From positions 1 to 44,795 of IMG/VR virus record IMGVR_UViG_2911509878_000001: 44,795 bases of DNA. One strand, written 5' to 3'. The notes under the pieces were generated by a model. It was not told the DNA's origin. It saw only the letters and a list, made by a program, of their open reading frames with translations, and did not search any database. The DNA comes from a virus. Below are positions 17,268 to 44,795 of this stretch, piece by piece. The position numbers and the translations under genes were made by a program. Each line of letters begins with the position of its first letter. Positions within the stretch are counted from its first letter, which is position 1.

Positions 17268-18569
17268 ATGTCGAAAAAAGAATATGATCTTGTGCCTATC
17301 GAAAGCATCTTCGTAGCTCCAGATCGACAGCGCCAGGAATTTAATGAGGCAAAACAACTCGAGCTAGATAACTCCATCCGCAAGCACGGCCTTATTCACC
17401 CCATCGTAATTTCAGAAGACAATACACTTATTGCAGGTGAGCGCCGCCTACGTTCTTACCAACGCCTTGATTATTCCATGATCGAGGTTCGTTACATTTA
17501 CGACCTCAATGAACAAGAACGCCAACTCGTTGAGTTCGAGGAAAACATTCGCCGGTCCGATTTGACCTGGCAAGAGCATACGCAGACGATTGCCCGATTT
17601 CATGAATTGAAGAAGACAGTTGAGGAAGATTGGTCGCAAGAAAAAACCGGAGTCGAACTTGACTTAACCGCAGCAGCAGTAAGCCAACACTTGTTAGTAA
17701 GCAAGGCTATGGAGGAAGGAGTCGAACAAGTAAACGAGGCGCCAAAGTTTTCTTCCGCCTATAGTTTCGCGCAGCGCCGAAAGGAACGGCAGCAGACCGC
17801 AAACAAGGCTGACATCAAAGACACCGTTGAAAGCCTGTTTGTTGATACAGCCTCTTCCAGCGAAGAAGCGAATGAAGAAGTGGAATTTGTTCCTGTCGAG
17901 TCTGAGGTTGCTGAAATAATGAACGGCGATTTCATTGAGTGGTGTAAGACACCCGTCAAAATCCCATTCAACCTTATTCACTGTGATTTTCCTTACGGTA
18001 TTAACGCCACGAAGATCGGACAGTCTGCGGCGAAAAGCGCGGGCGGCTACAACGACGATAAGGAAACGTATTGGAAATTGTTGGAGGCTTTTATAAATAA
18101 TCTAGACAACTTTTGCGCCCCCTCAGCCCATCTTGTCTTTTGGTTTAGTATGAACTATTACGAACAGACAAAAGAAATCCTGGAGTCTGCCGGGTTCCGA
18201 GTTTTCCTCCCCTTACTTATTTGGGGTCGCAGTGACAACAAAGGTATTCTCGCAGATCAAAACCGTGTTCCTCGCAACATTACCGAGACCGCCTTGCTTT
18301 GCAGTCGCGGGGACAGAAAGATTGTCCGCGCAACCTCCAACGCAGTTTGGGCAACAACAACTAAAGAATACCACATGTCGGAAAAGCCTTACGTCGTCAC
18401 CACGCATTTCCTGCGAATGTTGGTTGATGAGTCAACCCGCTTACTTGATCCCACCGCCGGTTCAGGAATGGCCGTTAAATGTGCCCGCGAACTCGGCGCG
18501 GAATACTCCCTCGGCATTGAGCTTAATCCCGATTACGCCTCCGACGCGCAAAGGAACCTTGAGTCATGA
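17268..18569 (+). CDS. ParB-like nuclease domain fused to a DNA N6-adenine/N4-cytosine methyltransferase (alternative start 17253)
   Basis: ParB-N: PDRQRQEF...HGLIHPIVI...IAGERR. MTase motif IV DFPY precedes motif I LDPTAGSG (beta-class order). Confidence 0.85.
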   Translation: MSKKEYDLVPIESIFVAPDRQRQEFNEAKQLELDNSIRKHGLIHPIVISEDNTLIAGERRLRSYQRLDYSMIEVRYIYDLNEQERQLVEFEENIRRSDLTWQEHTQTIARFHELKKTVEEDWSQEKTGVELDLTAAAVSQHLLVSKAMEEGVEQVNEAPKFSSAYSFAQRRKERQQTANKADIKDTVESLFVDTASSSEEANEEVEFVPVESEVAEIMNGDFIEWCKTPVKIPFNLIHCDFPYGINATKIGQSAAKSAGGYNDDKETYWKLLEAFINNLDNFCAPSAHLVFWFSMNYYEQTKEILESAGFRVFLPLLIWGRSDNKGILADQNRVPRNITETALLCSRGDRKIVRATSNAVWATTTKEYHMSEKPYVVTTHFLRMLVDESTRLLDPTAGSGMAVKCARELGAEYSLGIELNPDYASDAQRNLES

Positions 18570-19618
18570 AGGTCGCTATCGTCGGGGAAGCTTGGGGAGA
18601 AAAAGAAGAGGAAGCCGGAAAGCCTTTCGTGGGTGCTTCCGGCTGGGTTCTTGACAAAGCATTACAACAGGCTGGCATCGTTCGAAGCGAGTGCCTCATC
18701 ACCAACACTTTCAATTTCCGCCCGCTTGGTAACAAGCTTGAAACACTTTACGGAACCAAAGCCGAAGCCCTTCCAAACTATCGGCCAATCACCAAGGGTA
18801 AGTATATCCACAAAAAGTATTGGCCTGAACTTGAACGCCTTTACCACGAGATAGCAGCGTATGATCCAAACGTCATAGTCGCCTGCGGCAACACAGCGCT
18901 TTGGGCACTTTGCAAAAAGTCCGGCATCGCCTCCTATCGCGGTTCGCCGTTGGAAACTTTTGATTTCAAAGAGCAGATGAAGGACGCGCAAATCCCATAC
19001 GAAGGCAGACGCACTTACAAAGTTCTTGCAACCTGGCACCCCGCAGCGGTATTGCGCCAATGGCAGCTTCGTCCGATTTTGGTAGCCGACTTGCAGAAAG
19101 TTAAACAACAAGCAGCCTTCCCAGAAGTCCGCCGCCCTTCGCACCTTATTTACATGGAGCCAACGCTTCAAGATATTGAAGATTTTTACCACAACTTTCT
19201 ACTTAACCAACCTTTTCTTTCCGCCGACATTGAAACCAAGGATCGTTCCATAACCGAGATCGGCTTCTCCACTGCTGACGCAAGCCGGGCAATTGTAATT
19301 CCATTTTGGGATCGGTCGCAGCCATCTGGAAACTATTGGCAAACTTTGAAGGACGAACTTACCGCCTGGCGTTGGGTCCGCCGCATTTGCGCAGAGTTTC
19401 CATTGGTCGGACAAAACTTTCAGTACGACATGAAATATCTTTGGCGTACAGTTGGCATTCCGTGCCCCTATTTCCTCGATGACACCATGCTGATGCACCA
19501 TTCACTTCAGCCTGAAATGCGAAAGTCACTAGGCTTTATGGCTTCAATATACACCGATGAGCCGTCATGGAAATTCATGCGCACGGATCATAGCACCCTA
19601 AAGAAGGAGGATGAATAA
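18566..19618 (+). CDS. DNA polymerase fragment 1: family-4 UDG-like domain plus the 3'-5' exonuclease Exo I and Exo II motifs
   Basis: GEAWG...GKPFVGASG...ITNTFNFRP...WHPAAVLR, then SADIETKD (Exo I) and VGQNFQYDMKYL (Exo II). The ORF stops before any Exo III motif. Confidence 0.8.
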   Translation: MKVAIVGEAWGEKEEEAGKPFVGASGWVLDKALQQAGIVRSECLITNTFNFRPLGNKLETLYGTKAEALPNYRPITKGKYIHKKYWPELERLYHEIAAYDPNVIVACGNTALWALCKKSGIASYRGSPLETFDFKEQMKDAQIPYEGRRTYKVLATWHPAAVLRQWQLRPILVADLQKVKQQAAFPEVRRPSHLIYMEPTLQDIEDFYHNFLLNQPFLSADIETKDRSITEIGFSTADASRAIVIPFWDRSQPSGNYWQTLKDELTAWRWVRRICAEFPLVGQNFQYDMKYLWRTVGIPCPYFLDDTMLMHHSLQPEMRKSLGFMASIYTDEPSWKFMRTDHSTLKKEDE

Positions 19619-19764
19619 TGATTGTAATTCAATTGACAGGCGCACCCGGATCAGGGCGAACTGATGCTATAAATATAATCATTGAGTCTTTGGAGGGGCA
19701 GTTTGAAATCGTTAAAGTGGATCGCGAACATAGCGCAGTAAGTGTTATTAGGAAGTCATCATGA
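19618..19764 (+). CDS. Mini-ORF (48 aa) with a degenerate P-loop-like motif
   Basis: MIVIQLTGAPGSGRTDAINIIIESLEGQFEIVKVDREHSAVSVIRKSS. TAATG and ATGA coupling on both sides. Shorter than the ORFs listed in the supplied track. Confidence 0.45.
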   Translation: MIVIQLTGAPGSGRTDAINIIIESLEGQFEIVKVDREHSAVSVIRKSS

Positions 19765-20036
19765 TCCTCGGAACCCTACGCACTCACATAATCGAAGACC
19801 ACTTTCATTCTGTTCCTGAGGGCGGCTTCTTCACCCTCGACGTAAACATCGACGAGGCAATCATGCAACGCAGTGGAGACGTAAAGGCATATGGTTACAC
19901 GACTATTGCTGCTTGGCTTGCTTCCGCTATCAAAGATACAAAGGTTCCAAAGGAAAAATGGACCTTTGAATTTTCCGAGCGGGCGCGACGCCGCTATGAT
20001 TTCCCTGAGTTTCTAGATTTTGGGGTAGTCAAGTGA
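19761..20036 (+). CDS. Hypothetical protein (91 aa)
   Basis: Coupled to its neighbours on both sides. Confidence 0.6.
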   Translation: MILGTLRTHIIEDHFHSVPEGGFFTLDVNIDEAIMQRSGDVKAYGYTTIAAWLASAIKDTKVPKEKWTFEFSERARRRYDFPEFLDFGVVK

Positions 20037-20239
20037 ACCCACACAAACGCAAACAGGCTTTGGCAAAAATCCGCTTCTGCCCTGTTTGTAAAATCCGTGC
20101 ACTGTCGGATAAACGTTACAGCCTTTGCAATCACTGTGAAATGCAGAGGCGCTGGGATAAAGGTGATTATGATTGGCGAGAACAGCCGATTATAGAAGAA
20201 CCTAAAATAACATTAAACAAAGCTCCGTGGGAGAATTAA
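20033..20239 (+). CDS. Zinc-ribbon protein (68 aa)
   Basis: CPVC...14 aa...CNHC. GTG start overlaps the upstream stop. Confidence 0.55.
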   Translation: MNPHKRKQALAKIRFCPVCKIRALSDKRYSLCNHCEMQRRWDKGDYDWREQPIIEEPKITLNKAPWEN

Positions 20240-20240
20240 A

Positions 20241-20567
20241 ATGATCTACCTTGCATCGCCCTACAGTCATCCCGACCCTGTCATAATGCAGAACCGTTAC
20301 GAGCTTGCGCGCAACTATACGTTCAAGGAAATTCGTAAAGGATTACCAATGTTCAGCCCAATTGTTCATTGCCACGACATGTATCTGAATTGCAAAGGCG
20401 CGGAGTCTAACTTCAACTATTGGCGCGAATACAATATTCAAATGCTGCGTTTTTCAACTGAATTACACATCTTGACCTTACCGGGTTGGCGCGACTCGCA
20501 AGGTGTAGCCTTTGAAATGTTTGCCGCAGAAGAGCGCTCAATTCCTACGGTATACGTCAATGGCTAA
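20241..20567 (+). CDS. DUF1937-like (nucleoside 2-deoxyribosyltransferase-like fold) protein
   Basis: MIYLASPYSHPDP...MFSPIVHCH resembles the DUF1937 N-terminal signature as I recall it. Confidence 0.55.
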   Translation: MIYLASPYSHPDPVIMQNRYELARNYTFKEIRKGLPMFSPIVHCHDMYLNCKGAESNFNYWREYNIQMLRFSTELHILTLPGWRDSQGVAFEMFAAEERSIPTVYVNG

Positions 20568-22119
20568 ACTATTCGACACTCAACATTTAACCGAAAAGAC
20601 AATGAAGATGCTTTCGGCTAACGAGGCATCTTGGGTTTACAACGGACTGGACTGTTGTGTAACTTCCGAGGTCTATAATAATCTCCGCGAACAACTGGAT
20701 GGAGAAGAACCCCGTGTTCAGGAGACACATAAGTTTGCCAAAGCCAAGCTTGCGCCTTACATGGAAATGTCCCTGCGTGGATTGCATGTAGACCTTGCGG
20801 CTAAAGAGCGCGCACTCCAGGAATTAAAGAAAACACGGGACGACCTGGACCGAAAATTTCAACGCATTATGGTTGAGGTGTTTGGCGGGCCGATCAACTG
20901 GAACTCACCCACGCAAGTCAAGCAGTTACTTTACACGCAGATGGCATTGAAGCCTGTGAGGAAAAGAAACTCCAAAGGCTTTTACATGCCCACGGTGAAT
21001 GAGGAGGCCCTTGAGTATCTTAAAATTTACATTCATGCCAGGCCAATAATTTCATTCATCCTTACTTTGCGCGGCATTGCGAAGACTATCAGCTTTCTTA
21101 ACACAAAGCTCGACACCGACAACCGCATTCGCACCTCCTTCAACCTCGCTGGAACTGTAACCGGCAGGCTTTCCAGCGCCGAGTCCGAGTTCGGCTCCGG
21201 CACAAACTTACAGAATGTTGACAGGTCCATCCGTTATATTTTCACACCCGATCCTGGAATGTATATGGTGAACATTGACCTAGAGCAAGCCGACGCGCGG
21301 AACGTTGGCGCAATTATGTGGAACATGTTCTACGATAAACACGGCCCTGAGTTCGCCGGATCGTATCTTAACGCCTGCGAATCTTCCGACTTACACACAG
21401 CCGTATGTCGCATGGCGTGGCCGAACCTGCAATGGCCCGACGATGAGTCCGAATGGAAGAAGTATTGCTCCAGCGTAATCCTCTACGGCCAAGACTCCTA
21501 CCGTCAAATCGCTAAGAAGCTTGGACACGGGACAAACTATTACGGCACTCCCCCAACAATGGCACGACACACTCATACGCCGGTTCAGATCATCAAGGGC
21601 TTCCAACGAAACTACTTCAACGCTTTCCCCGTCATTCCGTTGTGGCAGAACGAAACAATTTCCCTGATCCAGGATCAAGGGGTTCTTTACAACTTGTTCG
21701 GACGCAGGCGGCATTTCTTTGGTCGCGGAAACGACGCCAAAACTCACCGAGATGCCATCGCGTATTCTCCTCAATCCAGCACAGGCGAACAAATCGACCG
21801 AGGCCTTTTCAACGTCTGGCGCAGCTTCGATATAAAGCTTGTTCAATTCCTCGTCCAAGTCCATGACTCAATCCTCTTCCAAATACCCTATGCAGAAGCA
21901 GAAGAACTAATCCCACTCATATTACAGAAAATGCAGGTTGTTTTAGAATTAAAAGGAGGCCGTTCTTTCACCATCCCGCTTGAGGTAAAAGCGGGATGGA
22001 ATTGGGGCGACTATGATGATGACAACCCGGACAAAAATCCACTAGGTTTAAAATCCTGGACTGGAAAAGAAGAACGGGAACGCCCGTCGCCAAGGCGGAG
22101 ACTGAAGGACTATCTATGA
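20560..22119 (+). CDS. DNA polymerase fragment 2: Exo III motif plus the family-A polymerase domain
   Basis: WVYNGLDCC (YxxxD), motif A VNIDLEQADAR, motif B RQIAKKLGHGTNYYG, motif C VQVHDSILF. ATG 20560 overlaps the upstream stop by 8 nt. Confidence 0.85.
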   Translation: MAKLFDTQHLTEKTMKMLSANEASWVYNGLDCCVTSEVYNNLREQLDGEEPRVQETHKFAKAKLAPYMEMSLRGLHVDLAAKERALQELKKTRDDLDRKFQRIMVEVFGGPINWNSPTQVKQLLYTQMALKPVRKRNSKGFYMPTVNEEALEYLKIYIHARPIISFILTLRGIAKTISFLNTKLDTDNRIRTSFNLAGTVTGRLSSAESEFGSGTNLQNVDRSIRYIFTPDPGMYMVNIDLEQADARNVGAIMWNMFYDKHGPEFAGSYLNACESSDLHTAVCRMAWPNLQWPDDESEWKKYCSSVILYGQDSYRQIAKKLGHGTNYYGTPPTMARHTHTPVQIIKGFQRNYFNAFPVIPLWQNETISLIQDQGVLYNLFGRRRHFFGRGNDAKTHRDAIAYSPQSSTGEQIDRGLFNVWRSFDIKLVQFLVQVHDSILFQIPYAEAEELIPLILQKMQVVLELKGGRSFTIPLEVKAGWNWGDYDDDNPDKNPLGLKSWTGKEERERPSPRRRLKDYL

Positions 22120-23303
22120 GTTGGGTGGACAACTTTGTATCATTTACATCAAACACAACCTCACCAGAACTTTTCAGACGTTGGGCAGGAATAAGCACCA
22201 TCGCCTGTGCGCTTGAGCGACGGACCTGGGTTGTCACTTACGGATCGAAATTGTATCCTAACCTATACATAGTCCTGTGTGCTCCGCCAGGCGTGGGTAA
22301 GACTGAGGTGCTTTGGCGCATCCGCGATGTGCTAGAGTATGTTGATGAACTTAATTTAGCAGCGCCTTCATTAACGAAGGCGTCTTTGATTGATGAGCTT
22401 AACGAGGCTGAACGGAGTGTGGTGCGTCCGCAGGATAATCCTTCCGTCATCAAATTCAACTCCTTGTCCTTAATCGTCAACGAGCTTGGAGTCTTGCTTC
22501 CAGCGTATGAAAATGATTTCATGAACACTTTGACGGATTTATATGACTGTAAGTTTTACGCCGAAAAACGCCGAACCAACAAACTTGAGATCAACATTCC
22601 CGCGCCTCAAATCAATATGATTGCGGGCACTACACCTTCCTATCTTAACAGCGTCATTCCTGAGGGCGCGTGGGATCAGGGCTTTCTATCACGAACTCTT
22701 CTAATCTACACCGGCGAACGTCACCTACGTGAACTATTCGATGTGTTAGGAACCAACGATGAAGAAAGCAATTCTCTTAAAGAAGGCATCGCCAAGATCA
22801 GTGACATTTACGGAGAAATAAAATTCACTGACGAGGCAAAAGAACTTATAAACAATTGGCACCTATCCGGTGGCCCGCCTTCTCCCGAGCATCCAAAGCT
22901 TATTCACTACAGCACCCGACGTACGGCGCATTTGCTAAAGCTTTGCCAAATTGCTTGCGTTGAGTCGCGCCTGGAATTAGTGATACGTCCGGAGGATTTC
23001 AACAAGGCCCTTGATTGGCTTATCGAGGCCGAGCATTACATGCCGGAAATCTTCAAAGCTATGTCCTCAGTCGGCACCGGCAAAACAATGGAGGAGGCTT
23101 GGTTCTATTTATTCCAAGCCTGGACCAAGGATAATAAGCCCGTGCAAGAACACAGGCTTATTCAATTTCTTCAGGAAAAAGTTCCGATCCATCACATCAA
23201 AGTTACTATTGAAATGATGGAGAAGTCAGGGATCATTACTCCGCAATTAACCAAAACCGGAAAGGCGTATGTTCCGCGAGGTAAAAAACCTAACTCGGGG
23301 TAA
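22116..23303 (+). CDS. P-loop NTPase, putative replicative helicase (DUF3987-like); no primase domain seen
   Basis: Walker A CAPPGVGKTE, Walker B-like SLIVNELG. Last gene of the rightward arm, ATGA-coupled to the polymerase. Confidence 0.55.
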   Translation: MSWVDNFVSFTSNTTSPELFRRWAGISTIACALERRTWVVTYGSKLYPNLYIVLCAPPGVGKTEVLWRIRDVLEYVDELNLAAPSLTKASLIDELNEAERSVVRPQDNPSVIKFNSLSLIVNELGVLLPAYENDFMNTLTDLYDCKFYAEKRRTNKLEINIPAPQINMIAGTTPSYLNSVIPEGAWDQGFLSRTLLIYTGERHLRELFDVLGTNDEESNSLKEGIAKISDIYGEIKFTDEAKELINNWHLSGGPPSPEHPKLIHYSTRRTAHLLKLCQIACVESRLELVIRPEDFNKALDWLIEAEHYMPEIFKAMSSVGTGKTMEEAWFYLFQAWTKDNKPVQEHRLIQFLQEKVPIHHIKVTIEMMEKSGIITPQLTKTGKAYVPRGKKPNSG

Positions 23304-42559: not shown

Positions 42560-44795
42560 TTACCCGCGTAATACGTTCCAATAGCGCGACCACTTTGTGA
42601 CAAGCGGCTCTATCCGCGCGATGCCGTACTCCATCTGCGTCCCAAAGGCGACGGTTACGCTGTGGGAAGTGGCCAAGTTTTCCGTAGTATTTCCAGTGTC
42701 GGCGGTGCCAAAGTGCATTGAGATAATATCAGCATTTGATGTCTCGCCGTTGCCGAACGCACCGCCGTGTAACTTGGTGAAGCTGATTTTTGACTTATGC
42801 GCGGAGGCTTCAAACACACCCGTGATCGTCACGAGATAGACCGCGCCACCGGCATACTGGATATTTGTTGTGCCGCCGGTTCGCCCCTGCCCTCCGAGAA
42901 AGAGGAAAAAGGTAATCGGGGTTCGCGAAGAGGCGTTCGTCCAGCCTGTCTGAATTGTAAACGTCGCCTTCTTTTGCCCGGTCGTGCCAGTGGCAGCAAT
43001 AGATAGGTGGCCGTCTTCCAGAATATCGCGGAAGGTGTAGGGGTCGGGGTTCTTGATATAGGACCGCAGAGAACGTGCGATTTGCTTTGTGGTTGTCGCT
43101 CCAACCGCACGCATCGCGTTGCTGAATGTGGTGTCATCCACATCAATTCGGAATCCATCGTGCGGATTGGCTACCAAGCTATCAGTCTTTGCGACCAGTG
43201 CGCCCTCAGCGTTTCCGAGGGTAAAGAAGCCACAATCTTTAAATGAAACGCTGGCGGGGTATTTAAGCAGGTAAACAAGGCCGCTTTCGGAATTGCCGTT
43301 CTCATACATAACGCCGTGAAAGCCGTTGATTGAACAGGCGTGGAAATTGATAGTAGGCGTCAACGTTTCTTCTTCGCCTATAACATCGTAATCATTCACG
43401 ACGATTGTGTGATTTGACCCCTCATTTGAGAAGCGACAATCGCTAAAATGCACGCCTCGATGCTGCTCTGTGGTGGTGCCTCCTGCGCCGTTGTCTTCCG
43501 TCAGTCTGACCCAAGAGCCACCGATGGTTGCCGATCCCGCAGGAATAAACATGCAGCCGCTGAAATTAATGAGCGAGTTGACGTGGAATGTGTCGGTGGA
43601 GCTACTGCGGCAGGCGATCCAGCTATCGCGAACGTTGATGCAATCGACATACGCTTGCGCAACCTGTACAACATCGCTCTCAAATACACAGCTATCAAAG
43701 TTTACTATCGTGCTTCTTGAGAGAGCGTAGGTGTCTGTATCCAAGAATAGATTTGTCGAGTCGCAAATCACATCCCGAAAAACATATTTGGACGAGTTCA
43801 GGTTGCCGGAACTTATAACAAAAGCCTTGTTTAGGTTATTGAATTGCACACCCTCAACTTCAAGATAACGAACTCCGGAACCCGAGAAGGCCGTCACCGT
43901 CTTTGTGCCGGAGGTGTTGCCTACTATAAGTGCACGCCCGTCACTTACCAAACGTACAAAACGGTGTCCTTCCACATTTATCGTTGAGTCGATACGAAAC
44001 TCTCCTCCGTCTGGGAGGAGTACTTCAGGAGACACACTAGCGAAAGTTGAACTACCTGGCCACTGTGCGCTATTGGCAACAACTTCAACAGCATCAAACG
44101 CGGCTTGAATTGCTGCAGCATCGTTTGTCAATCCATTTCCTAACGCGCCGAAGGCCTTTACGTTGTAACGGTTCTTGTCGGGAATAACATTAAATCCAGC
44201 AGCGTCGGGGATTTGGGTTGAACCAGCCGTAGCTTTATAGTCACTTTCAGCTGTGATAATTGTACCATCAGGCCAGGTTTGATTTCTCCCTATAGCTGCA
44301 ATAAATCTTGCGCGGGTGGTGAAAGTTGGCCCGGCTTCGTAAAGTTTAACCCCGTCAGTACGAGTTTCGTCTGGAGACAATTCTGAAGATGGAGCCACTT
44401 TAAAGGAGGTTTTACCGGTGGTTATGAACAGAGTATCCCCCTCGGCAAAATTTGTGGTGTCAGCCAGCAATTCCGCCATGCTATCGTAGTATTTTGAAAC
44501 TAATATTTCAGTTGCGTTTGCAAAATCTTGTGCCTCGTTTTTAGCTGTAACCGCATCGTTACGAGCTTGTATTGTTTGTTCGAGACTATCAGTCGCAATA
44601 ATCACGTCTTGGGTTATTAAATTACTAAAGGTGGCAGTGGCTTCGTTAGGCACCACTATAGTAAAGCGCCAAACTTTACCCTCGACTGTGGTCTCGACGA
44701 GGTAATAGCCTGTGTATAAGGAAATAGAAATGTTACCGGAGCCGTCAGTATTAACAGTTTCCGTCTCGGGTAAAAGAACGCCAGCTACCGAACCA
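42560..44795 (-). CDS. Tailspike with pectate-lyase-type beta-helix (putative polysaccharide depolymerase); the 5' end continues at 56..153 across the circular junction (777 aa in total)
   Basis: YNVKAFGALGNGLTNDAAAIQAAFDA is the Pectate_lyase_3 signature. The frame stays open upstream of the track start (GTG 44656) to the window end and stays in frame with 1..153. Confidence 0.8.
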   Translation of the reverse strand, partial: GSVAGVLLPETETVNTDGSGNISISLYTGYYLVETTVEGKVWRFTIVVPNEATATFSNLITQDVIIATDSLEQTIQARNDAVTAKNEAQDFANATEILVSKYYDSMAELLADTTNFAEGDTLFITTGKTSFKVAPSSELSPDETRTDGVKLYEAGPTFTTRARFIAAIGRNQTWPDGTIITAESDYKATAGSTQIPDAAGFNVIPDKNRYNVKAFGALGNGLTNDAAAIQAAFDAVEVVANSAQWPGSSTFASVSPEVLLPDGGEFRIDSTINVEGHRFVRLVSDGRALIVGNTSGTKTVTAFSGSGVRYLEVEGVQFNNLNKAFVISSGNLNSSKYVFRDVICDSTNLFLDTDTYALSRSTIVNFDSCVFESDVVQVAQAYVDCINVRDSWIACRSSSTDTFHVNSLINFSGCMFIPAGSATIGGSWVRLTEDNGAGGTTTEQHRGVHFSDCRFSNEGSNHTIVVNDYDVIGEEETLTPTINFHACSINGFHGVMYENGNSESGLVYLLKYPASVSFKDCGFFTLGNAEGALVAKTDSLVANPHDGFRIDVDDTTFSNAMRAVGATTTKQIARSLRSYIKNPDPYTFRDILEDGHLSIAATGTTGQKKATFTIQTGWTNASSRTPITFFLFLGGQGRTGGTTNIQYAGGAVYLVTITGVFEASAHKSKISFTKLHGGAFGNGETSNADIISMHFGTADTGNTTENLATSHSVTVAFGTQMEYGIARIEPLVTKWSRYWNVLRG
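44741..44795. repeat. Terminal overlap, copy 2 (identical to 1..55)
   Basis: Exact 55-bp identity with the window start. Confidence 0.95.

Follow-up and report, generated by a model that had tools for sequence, protein, structure and literature searches.

Several essential replication enzymes are made as two polypeptides that reassemble, as with genes broken up by free-standing homing endonucleases (nrdA/mobE of phage Aeh1 and the split gp43 of T4-related phages) and with the split archaeal PolB of Methanothermobacter. Family-A DNA polymerases (PolAs) of phages also occur in pieces. The S-SBP1-like T7-like cyanophages carry a PolA divided into two adjacent overlapping genes, a fission conserved in their subclade, and the AlphaFold complex of the S-SBP1 chains superposes on the unsplit relative Syn5 with the new termini solvent-exposed (Czernecki et al. 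2023, PMC10201439). In the OM43 phages MEP401 and MEP402, a small open reading frame (ORF) interrupts PolA within its polymerase domain (PMC10580990), and a split polymerase is reported for a marine cyanophage lineage (bioRxiv 10.1101/325100). The uracil-DNA glycosylase (UDG)-PolAs of N4-like cluster 17, SPO1-like and SP15-like phages combine an N-terminal family-4 UDG-like domain with exonuclease and PolA domains, and those described are all single chains (PMC10201439; bioRxiv 10.1101/2025.03.26.645540). Here we analyze a 44,795-nt stretch of marine phage DNA (IMG/VR record IMGVR_UViG_2911509878_000001, positions 1 to 44,795; hereafter the window) in which two genes, ORF1 and ORF2, most probably encode a two-subunit UDG-PolA that arose by an old gene fission, has a composite proofreading site and carries accessory genes at the fission junction.

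With the described UDG-PolAs, the window shares the N-terminal family-4 UDG-like domain, and this domain has largely kept its GE..G and HPA motifs. With the S-SBP1 and LUZ24 types, it shares two separate, co-oriented genes conserved in a clade, and relatives of the window without an insert (loci L020 and L021) look like S-SBP1. The S-SBP1 split, however, is classed by its description as lying at the exonuclease/polymerase boundary, whereas the cut in the window divides the exonuclease active site and its junction hosts variable genes. The LUZ24-like Pseudomonas phages (Bruynoghevirus) encode gp25, a 'DNA polymerase exonuclease subunit', and gp34, 'DNA polymerase part II', on the same strand, with eight small unrelated genes, an endonuclease gene included, between the exonuclease and polymerase parts. 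When translated here, gp25 was found to hold Exo I, II and III (YCLQD) and no UDG-like domain; the LUZ24 cut therefore falls after the exonuclease domain, not within it. We also noted that the LUZ24 polymerase (L058:1147-6306) is annotated in three pieces, gp25, gp34 and gp36, with an endonuclease VII gene between the last two.

Split PolAs as such are thus already known (LUZ24, S-SBP1, MEP401), and what is new is that four features meet in one system: the enzyme is a UDG-PolA, its exonuclease fold is cut so that the catalytic residues fall on two polypeptides, the arrangement is fixed throughout a very large clade, and the junction hosts a variable slot for genes. The position of the cut and its wide conservation appear to be undescribed. 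Our literature search found no description of this clade's split, and the paper on Caulobacter phage Kuura, a relative discussed below, annotates only the polymerase half. An initial annotation of the window, made from the sequence alone, had proposed a PolA split by a four-gene insert; it mentioned neither the UDG-like domain of ORF1 nor the split PolAs already documented.

A polymerase gene divided between Exo II and Exo III

ORF1 and ORF2 occupy different reading frames and are separated by exactly 941 nt (Table 1). The ORF map and the raw sequence over 19560-20640 confirmed the ORFs, the motifs, the gap and the four same-strand ORFs within it as initially annotated. When compared with phrog_17, a PHROG DNA-polymerase profile, ORF1 covers positions 480-789 and ORF2 positions 809-1244, and this consecutive coverage makes them successive parts of one protein. 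ORF2 matched Pfam DNA_pol_A (E 5e-38) as well as Klenow and KlenTaq in the PDB, with the KlenTaq alignment beginning at the vestigial Exo III helix. Residues 2-168 of ORF1 belong to the UDG superfamily (Pfam, E 2e-19), and its N-terminus matched the solved family-4 UDGs 1l9g and 1ui0 and UdgX in the PDB. The Pfam match of ORF1 to DNA_pol_A_exo1 was weak, below the gathering threshold.

To locate the cut, the concatenated window chains were combined with 88 unsplit relatives into a profile (A3), which was aligned to Klenow. In this alignment 'vgqnflYD' fell on VGQNLKYD (Exo II) and 'wtYnckDa' on RYAAEDAD (Exo III), and the invariant columns include D221, E223, Y287, D288, Y377 and D381, the last two being Y27 and D31 of ORF2. 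The cut maps to the Klenow loop immediately preceding YAAED. In the unsplit polymerase of Microcystis phage Mel-JY34 there is a ~15-aa loop at this place, where the window and Kuura polymerases end ~14 aa past 'SWK' and resume ~24 aa ahead of 'YNGLDC'. According to the Klenow profile alignment and two AlphaFold models described below, the chain is interrupted in the loop that connects Exo II to the Exo III helix, and hence, as had been proposed, inside the 3'-5' exonuclease domain of a family-A polymerase.

All three Exo motifs (DxE, NxxxYD and YxxxD) are present, with I and II on ORF1 and III on ORF2. Alignments to Klenow and to unsplit relatives revealed no Exo III within ORF1 and matched the N-terminal part of ORF2 to the Klenow Exo III, so that the initial assignment of the motifs to the two chains stands. 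The exonuclease-bearing subunit does not hold a complete Exo I-III domain, and no single polypeptide combines the two activities: ORF1, whose C-terminus reads ...TLKKEDE, has its stop codon at 19616-19618, and the restart at 20560 is in another frame. As the catalytic residues are divided over ORF1 and ORF2, an active proofreading enzyme would need both polypeptides, which is what the initial annotation had argued.

The UDG-like domain (18566-19070) begins directly at motif A, IVGEAWGE (18578-18601). Its TWHPAAVLRQ motif, at 19031-19060, keeps HPAAV, and residues G7, E8, H158 and P159 are conserved in most of 146 representative homologues.

Table 1. Coordinates of the split polymerase, its motifs, the intervening ORFs and the neighboring genes in the window
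Feature	Coordinates	Strand	Remarks
Polymerase subunit 1 (ORF1), 350 aa	18566..19618	+	UDG-like domain, then N-terminal two-thirds of the 3'-5' exonuclease fold
Exo I, SADIETKD	19220..19243	+	In ORF1; D221, E223
Exo II, VGQNFQYDMKYL	19406..19441	+	In ORF1; Y287, D288; aligns to Klenow VGQNLKYD
Polymerase subunit 2 (ORF2), 519 aa	20560..22119	+	24-aa N-terminal extension, Exo III helix, thumb, palm, fingers
Exo III, WVYNGLDCC (YxxxD)	20632..20658	+	In ORF2; Y27, D31; aligns to Klenow YAAEDAD
Polymerase motif A	21268..21300	+	In ORF2
Polymerase motif B	21502..21546	+	In ORF2
Polymerase motif C	21853..21879	+	In ORF2
48-aa ORF, P-loop-like GAPGSGRT	19618..19764	+	Start overlaps ORF1 stop (TAATG); AAGGAGG inside ORF1 precedes the start
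91-aa ORF	19761..20036	+	Family found in the same inter-half slot of 13 related loci
68-aa ORF, CxxC...CxxC zinc-ribbon-like motif	20033..20239	+	Tara relative retains the frame and the Cys motif
DUF1937-like protein, 108 aa (nucleoside 2-deoxyribosyltransferase-like fold family)	20241..20567	+	Stop overlaps ORF2 start (ATGGCTAA)
ParB_N-N6/N4 DNA methyltransferase fusion, 438 aa	17253..18569	+	Upstream neighbor; stop overlaps ORF1 start
DUF3987 primase/helicase-like protein	22116..23303	+	Downstream neighbor; start overlaps ORF2 stop

Conservation of the break and the predicted fold

The break is common to a large group of phages. Among 48 IMG/VR loci retrieved with ORF1, ~43 (37-61% identity) have an ORF1 that stops at the same residue and an ORF2 homologue 0-1630 bp downstream, in any frame, with the gene order constant. 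Two of them, L020 and L021, have no insert, and the halves adjoin through a TAATG stop/start overlap (...GAC TAA TG AAG...). A search of 5.8 billion proteins gave 1731 ORF1 homologues, the best 120 of which are all 331-368 aa long. In a library clustered at 50% identity, 922 representatives fell below E 1e-30; the best 150 (37-62% identity) are all 204-407 aa long, and those longer than 300 aa (146 of the best 150) end 8-19 residues past WK, as ORF1 of the window does 14 aa past the conserved 'SWK'. The 24-aa N-terminal extension of ORF2 is likewise conserved, and the new termini on either side of the break are kept clade-wide. The closest phage relative in GenBank, Kuura, has the same two-gene layout with two different small ORFs between the halves; its ORF1 homologue is annotated 'hypothetical'.

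Relatives with an unsplit gene were also found by search. Mel-JY34 encodes the same polymerase as one 810-aa ORF, and a search with this protein recovered a large group of unsplit UDG-exonuclease-polymerase proteins of ~760-940 aa (mostly 765-835) on 41-48 kb contigs, metagenomic relatives that make up a sister clade together with Mel-JY34. These unsplit relatives resemble the split ones in domain order, in the DUF3987 gene downstream, in genome size and in full-length identity (31-36%), and the ParB_N-N6/N4 methyltransferase stands upstream of the polymerase in split and unsplit relatives alike. They differ in having one ORF of ~780-830 aa, in which the ~15-aa loop takes the place of the stop, spacer and restart of the split clade. 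The two forms separate cleanly in a midpoint-rooted neighbor-joining tree built from biased sampling. Because the break is common to a diverse clade while the length and content of the spacer vary, the fission is likely old.

Both halves retain their catalytic residues. In ORF1 homologues D221, E223, D288, D306 and K336 are conserved in all 146 cluster representatives, and Y27 and D31 of ORF2 are present in 150 of 151 homologues. Such invariance in both chains speaks for a joint function. Compared with a Tara Oceans scaffold that is ~90% identical in DNA and has the same four-ORF spacer between the polymerase halves, ORF1 has 69 synonymous codon changes against 8 non-synonymous ones, from which ORF1 is judged to be evolving under purifying selection.

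AlphaFold2 models were made of ORF1 and ORF2 as one concatenated chain. With an alignment of unsplit relatives, the model had a mean predicted local distance difference test score (pLDDT) of 88.7 and a predicted template modeling score (pTM) of 0.89; residues 340-352 and the extreme C-terminus scored below 50 and the Exo III helix (370-397) above 90. A second alignment (A7) added 34 ORF1-type and 34 ORF2-type fragments to the unsplit relatives and gave pLDDT 93.9 and pTM 0.91. In this model the ORF1 tail (339-350) stays disordered and the ORF2 head is confident (~89) and folds into a strand (353-356) and a helix (362-367). The added fragments were unpaired, and the model therefore carries no evidence of co-evolution between the chains. 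The best PDB match (Foldseek) was E. coli Pol I/Klenow, 8oo6_A (E 3e-28, target TM score 0.79), aligned over 674 columns against its 604 residues and spanning the exonuclease and polymerase domains; the best viral structural matches were polymerases of ~820-1050 aa, presumed single-chain UDG-PolAs, with TM scores of ~0.7. The two chains are thus predicted to be compatible with one Klenow-like fold, and whether they assemble in trans is beyond the reach of these models.

We considered whether the two ORFs might act independently, with ORF2 a proofreading-deficient polymerase bearing a structural exonuclease remnant (as reported for CCPol) and ORF1 a free-standing UDG-like protein whose exonuclease fragment is inactive. 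Czernecki et al. (PMC10201439) describe PolAs in which three helices are all that is left of the exonuclease and which have no complementary gene, and a dead fragment would fit the sub-threshold Pfam match of the exonuclease part of ORF1. We consider independence unlikely, however, given that all five exonuclease catalytic residues are invariant on both halves across 146-151 diverged homologues, that the linkage and order of the two genes never vary and that the concatenated chains confidently model as one Klenow-like exonuclease fold.

The explanation we favor is instead that an old fission gave rise to a two-subunit family-A replicative polymerase of the UDG-PolA type, which is now a fixed trait of a large clade of phages with genomes of ~42-46 kb. 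ORF1 would supply the UDG-like domain and the Exo I/II part of the exonuclease fold with three catalytic carboxylates, and ORF2 a short conserved extension, the Exo III helix that bears the catalytic Tyr and Asp, and the polymerase domain in full. The two chains would be translated separately from a single compact operon in which stops and starts overlap, and they would then associate non-covalently by fragment complementation, rebuilding one exonuclease fold with a composite active site. In this scheme the fission junction would have become a slot holding 0 to ~5 small genes, most often DUF1937/NDT-like and occasionally MazG or HNH homing endonuclease genes, and the four ORFs of the window would be its current content rather than the cause of the split. 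The position of the split, its conservation, the selection on the gene and the compatibility of the chains with one fold are observations; it is the physical assembly and the activity of the two chains that we infer.

Some points weigh against this explanation. Both models come from a covalently concatenated chain, so that binding between the chains is deduced rather than modeled. The ORF1 tail is conserved and yet predicted to be disordered. A single origin of the fission would rest on a midpoint-rooted neighbor-joining tree with biased sampling, and the start of ORF2 at ATG 20560 rather than TTG 20512 is read only from the N-termini of homologues. For the tail (LKxxDx), the Shine-Dalgarno sequence embedded in its codons, described in the next section, may account for the conservation despite the predicted disorder.

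The junction as a slot for small genes

The initial annotation described the four ORFs between the halves as having overlapping starts and stops. This held for TAATG, ATGA, GTGA and ATGGCTAA, but the fourth of the five junctions in order, between the 68- and 108-aa ORFs, is a 1-nt spacer. The final codons of ORF1 (19601-19620, AAGAAGGAGGATGAATAATG) double as a strong Shine-Dalgarno sequence and TAATG restart for the 48-aa ORF, and Shine-Dalgarno-like sequences precede the spacer ORFs. Promoter-like and terminator-like sites were not enriched in the region, which reads as a putative single operon with translational coupling.

The four ORFs differ in how well they are supported as genes. The 108-aa ORF matched DUF1937 (Pfam PF09152, E 9e-11), phrog_355 and PDB 1t1j (E 4e-9), and differs from its Tara counterpart by 25 synonymous and 4 non-synonymous changes. 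For the 91-aa ORF (23 synonymous, 7 non-synonymous) no Pfam or PHROG match was obtained, those of the 48-, 91- and 68-aa ORFs all being sub-threshold. The 68-aa ORF (11 synonymous, 15 non-synonymous) is probably coding, with 22 of its 38 nucleotide differences at third codon positions. The coding status of the 48-aa ORF is uncertain; it is kept in the Tara relative (6 synonymous, 7 non-synonymous), and gene calling picked it up in one of two assemblies. Clustering of the spacer ORFs across loci gave two recurrent families, the DUF1937-like and the 91-aa one; the 48- and 68-aa ORFs are singletons with no homologues among the related loci, and gene finders treat them inconsistently.

A DUF1937-like gene is the commonest occupant of the slot; a hidden Markov model search detected it in the gap of 28 of ~42 split loci, and the ±6 kb flanks had no further copy. 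A literature search on DUF1937 found nothing. Other loci hold the related DUF7768, three MazG ORFs, three HNH_3 endonucleases and one FkbM methyltransferase, and the two inter-half ORFs of Kuura have no detectable similarity to the four of the window. Because the occupants vary in this way among split loci, the junction acts as a permissive site that accepts small genes, most of them connected with nucleotide metabolism. The HNH_3 homing endonuclease genes (L023:7023-7451, L041:6978-7406 and L041:8161-8625), one of which has an AP2 domain, directly abut the ORF1 stop or the ORF2 start. In the unsplit Mel-JY34, a DUF1937-like gene lies just upstream of the polymerase. We do not claim that an upstream slot was simply relocated into the gene, since many split loci keep 0.1-1.1 kb between the methyltransferase and ORF1.

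These comparisons bear on the initial proposal that the four ORFs themselves interrupted the gene, as a recent mobile cassette that cut an intact polymerase in this genome would have done. Four foreign-looking ORFs do lie exactly between the halves, HNH homing endonucleases occupy the same slot of L023 and L041, and an intein elsewhere in a 94%-identical ORF2 relative indicates that mobile elements do target the gene. The same break, however, occurs throughout the clade with different inserts or none, and the flanking termini are conserved, which contradicts the proposal that the insert caused the split. The insert itself is shared with the ~90%-identical Tara scaffold, but other relatives have in common with it only the 91-aa and DUF1937-like families. 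None of the four ORFs matched an endonuclease, transposase or integrase family in Pfam or PHROGs, the GC content of the spacer is unremarkable, and no relative of >90% identity with an uninterrupted gene was present among those sampled. A recent cassette is thus very unlikely. The likeness to 'genes in pieces' made by free-standing homing endonucleases extends to endonuclease genes in the gaps of L023 and L041 only; the gap of the window has no endonuclease match, and the divided enzymes belong to different families.

Restoration of a single polypeptide by a self-splicing intron, translational bypass or split-intein trans-splicing is still more improbable, even though phage polymerase genes frequently bear group I introns and inteins (PMC10580990; LUZ24). 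An Rfam search at E<=1 over 18000-22600 found no intron and only a chance snoRNA match, and the spacer is taken up by conserved ORFs under selection, with Shine-Dalgarno sequences of their own. The halves are in different frames, and the 14-aa tail and 24-aa head fall well short of the length of split-intein halves and show no Cys/Ser/Thr junction, in agreement with the initial view that the interruption is neither a frameshift error nor an intein. Loci without an insert also still show a stop and a restart.

The window corresponds to NCBI contig WVLN01000011.1 of Roseobacter assembly GCA_013108115.1, and ORF2 is 100% identical to the NCBI entry 'DNA polymerase [unclassified Roseobacter]'. Positions 1-55 are identical to 44741-44795, an assembler k-mer overlap; the window therefore represents a complete, circularly closed (or terminally redundant) phage genome of 44,740 bp. 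No tRNA genes were found in it. Although the contig comes from a bacterial genome assembly, an assembly chimera, which the initial annotation had raised, or a decaying pseudogene in a defective prophage is hardly credible, given the strong purifying selection, the closed genome and the same architecture in independent assemblies (the polymerase gene order was recovered in a Logan assembly of SRR13334950), in the Tara scaffold and in Kuura, an isolated, plaque-forming phage (PMC9959647).

Relatives of ORF2 are also interrupted at other positions. The 94%-identical relative P0122 (L059:6491-8926) is 811 aa long and has a 292-aa intein-like insert, CVLPS...VTGN followed by T, between SEFGSG and TNLQNV; the equivalent place in the window is ~21200, where the insert is absent. 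About nine further ORF2 homologues are 719-852 aa long. In Vibrio phage vB_VspS_VS-ABTNL-3 (L003:3905-7039), a related UDG-PolA is split elsewhere, just past the NLQN motif, by a 184-aa ORF without a Pfam match. This site practically coincides with that of the intein-like insert in P0122, which suggests a second interruption hotspot.

Implications of a probable two-chain UDG-PolA

The fission could be adaptive rather than neutral: with the modules on separate subunits, the phage could adjust or swap its proofreading and uracil handling, for instance by changing subunit stoichiometry during infection, and the DUF1937/NDT-like protein, whose gene lies between the halves in most lineages, could be a third holoenzyme partner that acts on the nucleotide pool or modifies bases in concert with the UDG-like domain. 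We regard this extension as speculative and rather doubtful.

Current annotations call ORF1-type proteins 'uracil-DNA glycosylase' or 'hypothetical', and these phages therefore seem to encode a polymerase without an exonuclease. Pipelines for annotation and PolA-based surveys of virioplankton would misread phages with the split polymerase. If the two chains do assemble as proposed, the clade would provide a natural, evolutionarily stable case of fragment complementation, in which a proofreading site is shared by two polypeptides across hundreds of phage lineages, with the unsplit sister clade as a built-in control. It would then be a model for communication between exonuclease and polymerase, for the tolerance of fission in essential enzymes and for the recruitment of accessory genes by new intergenic slots.

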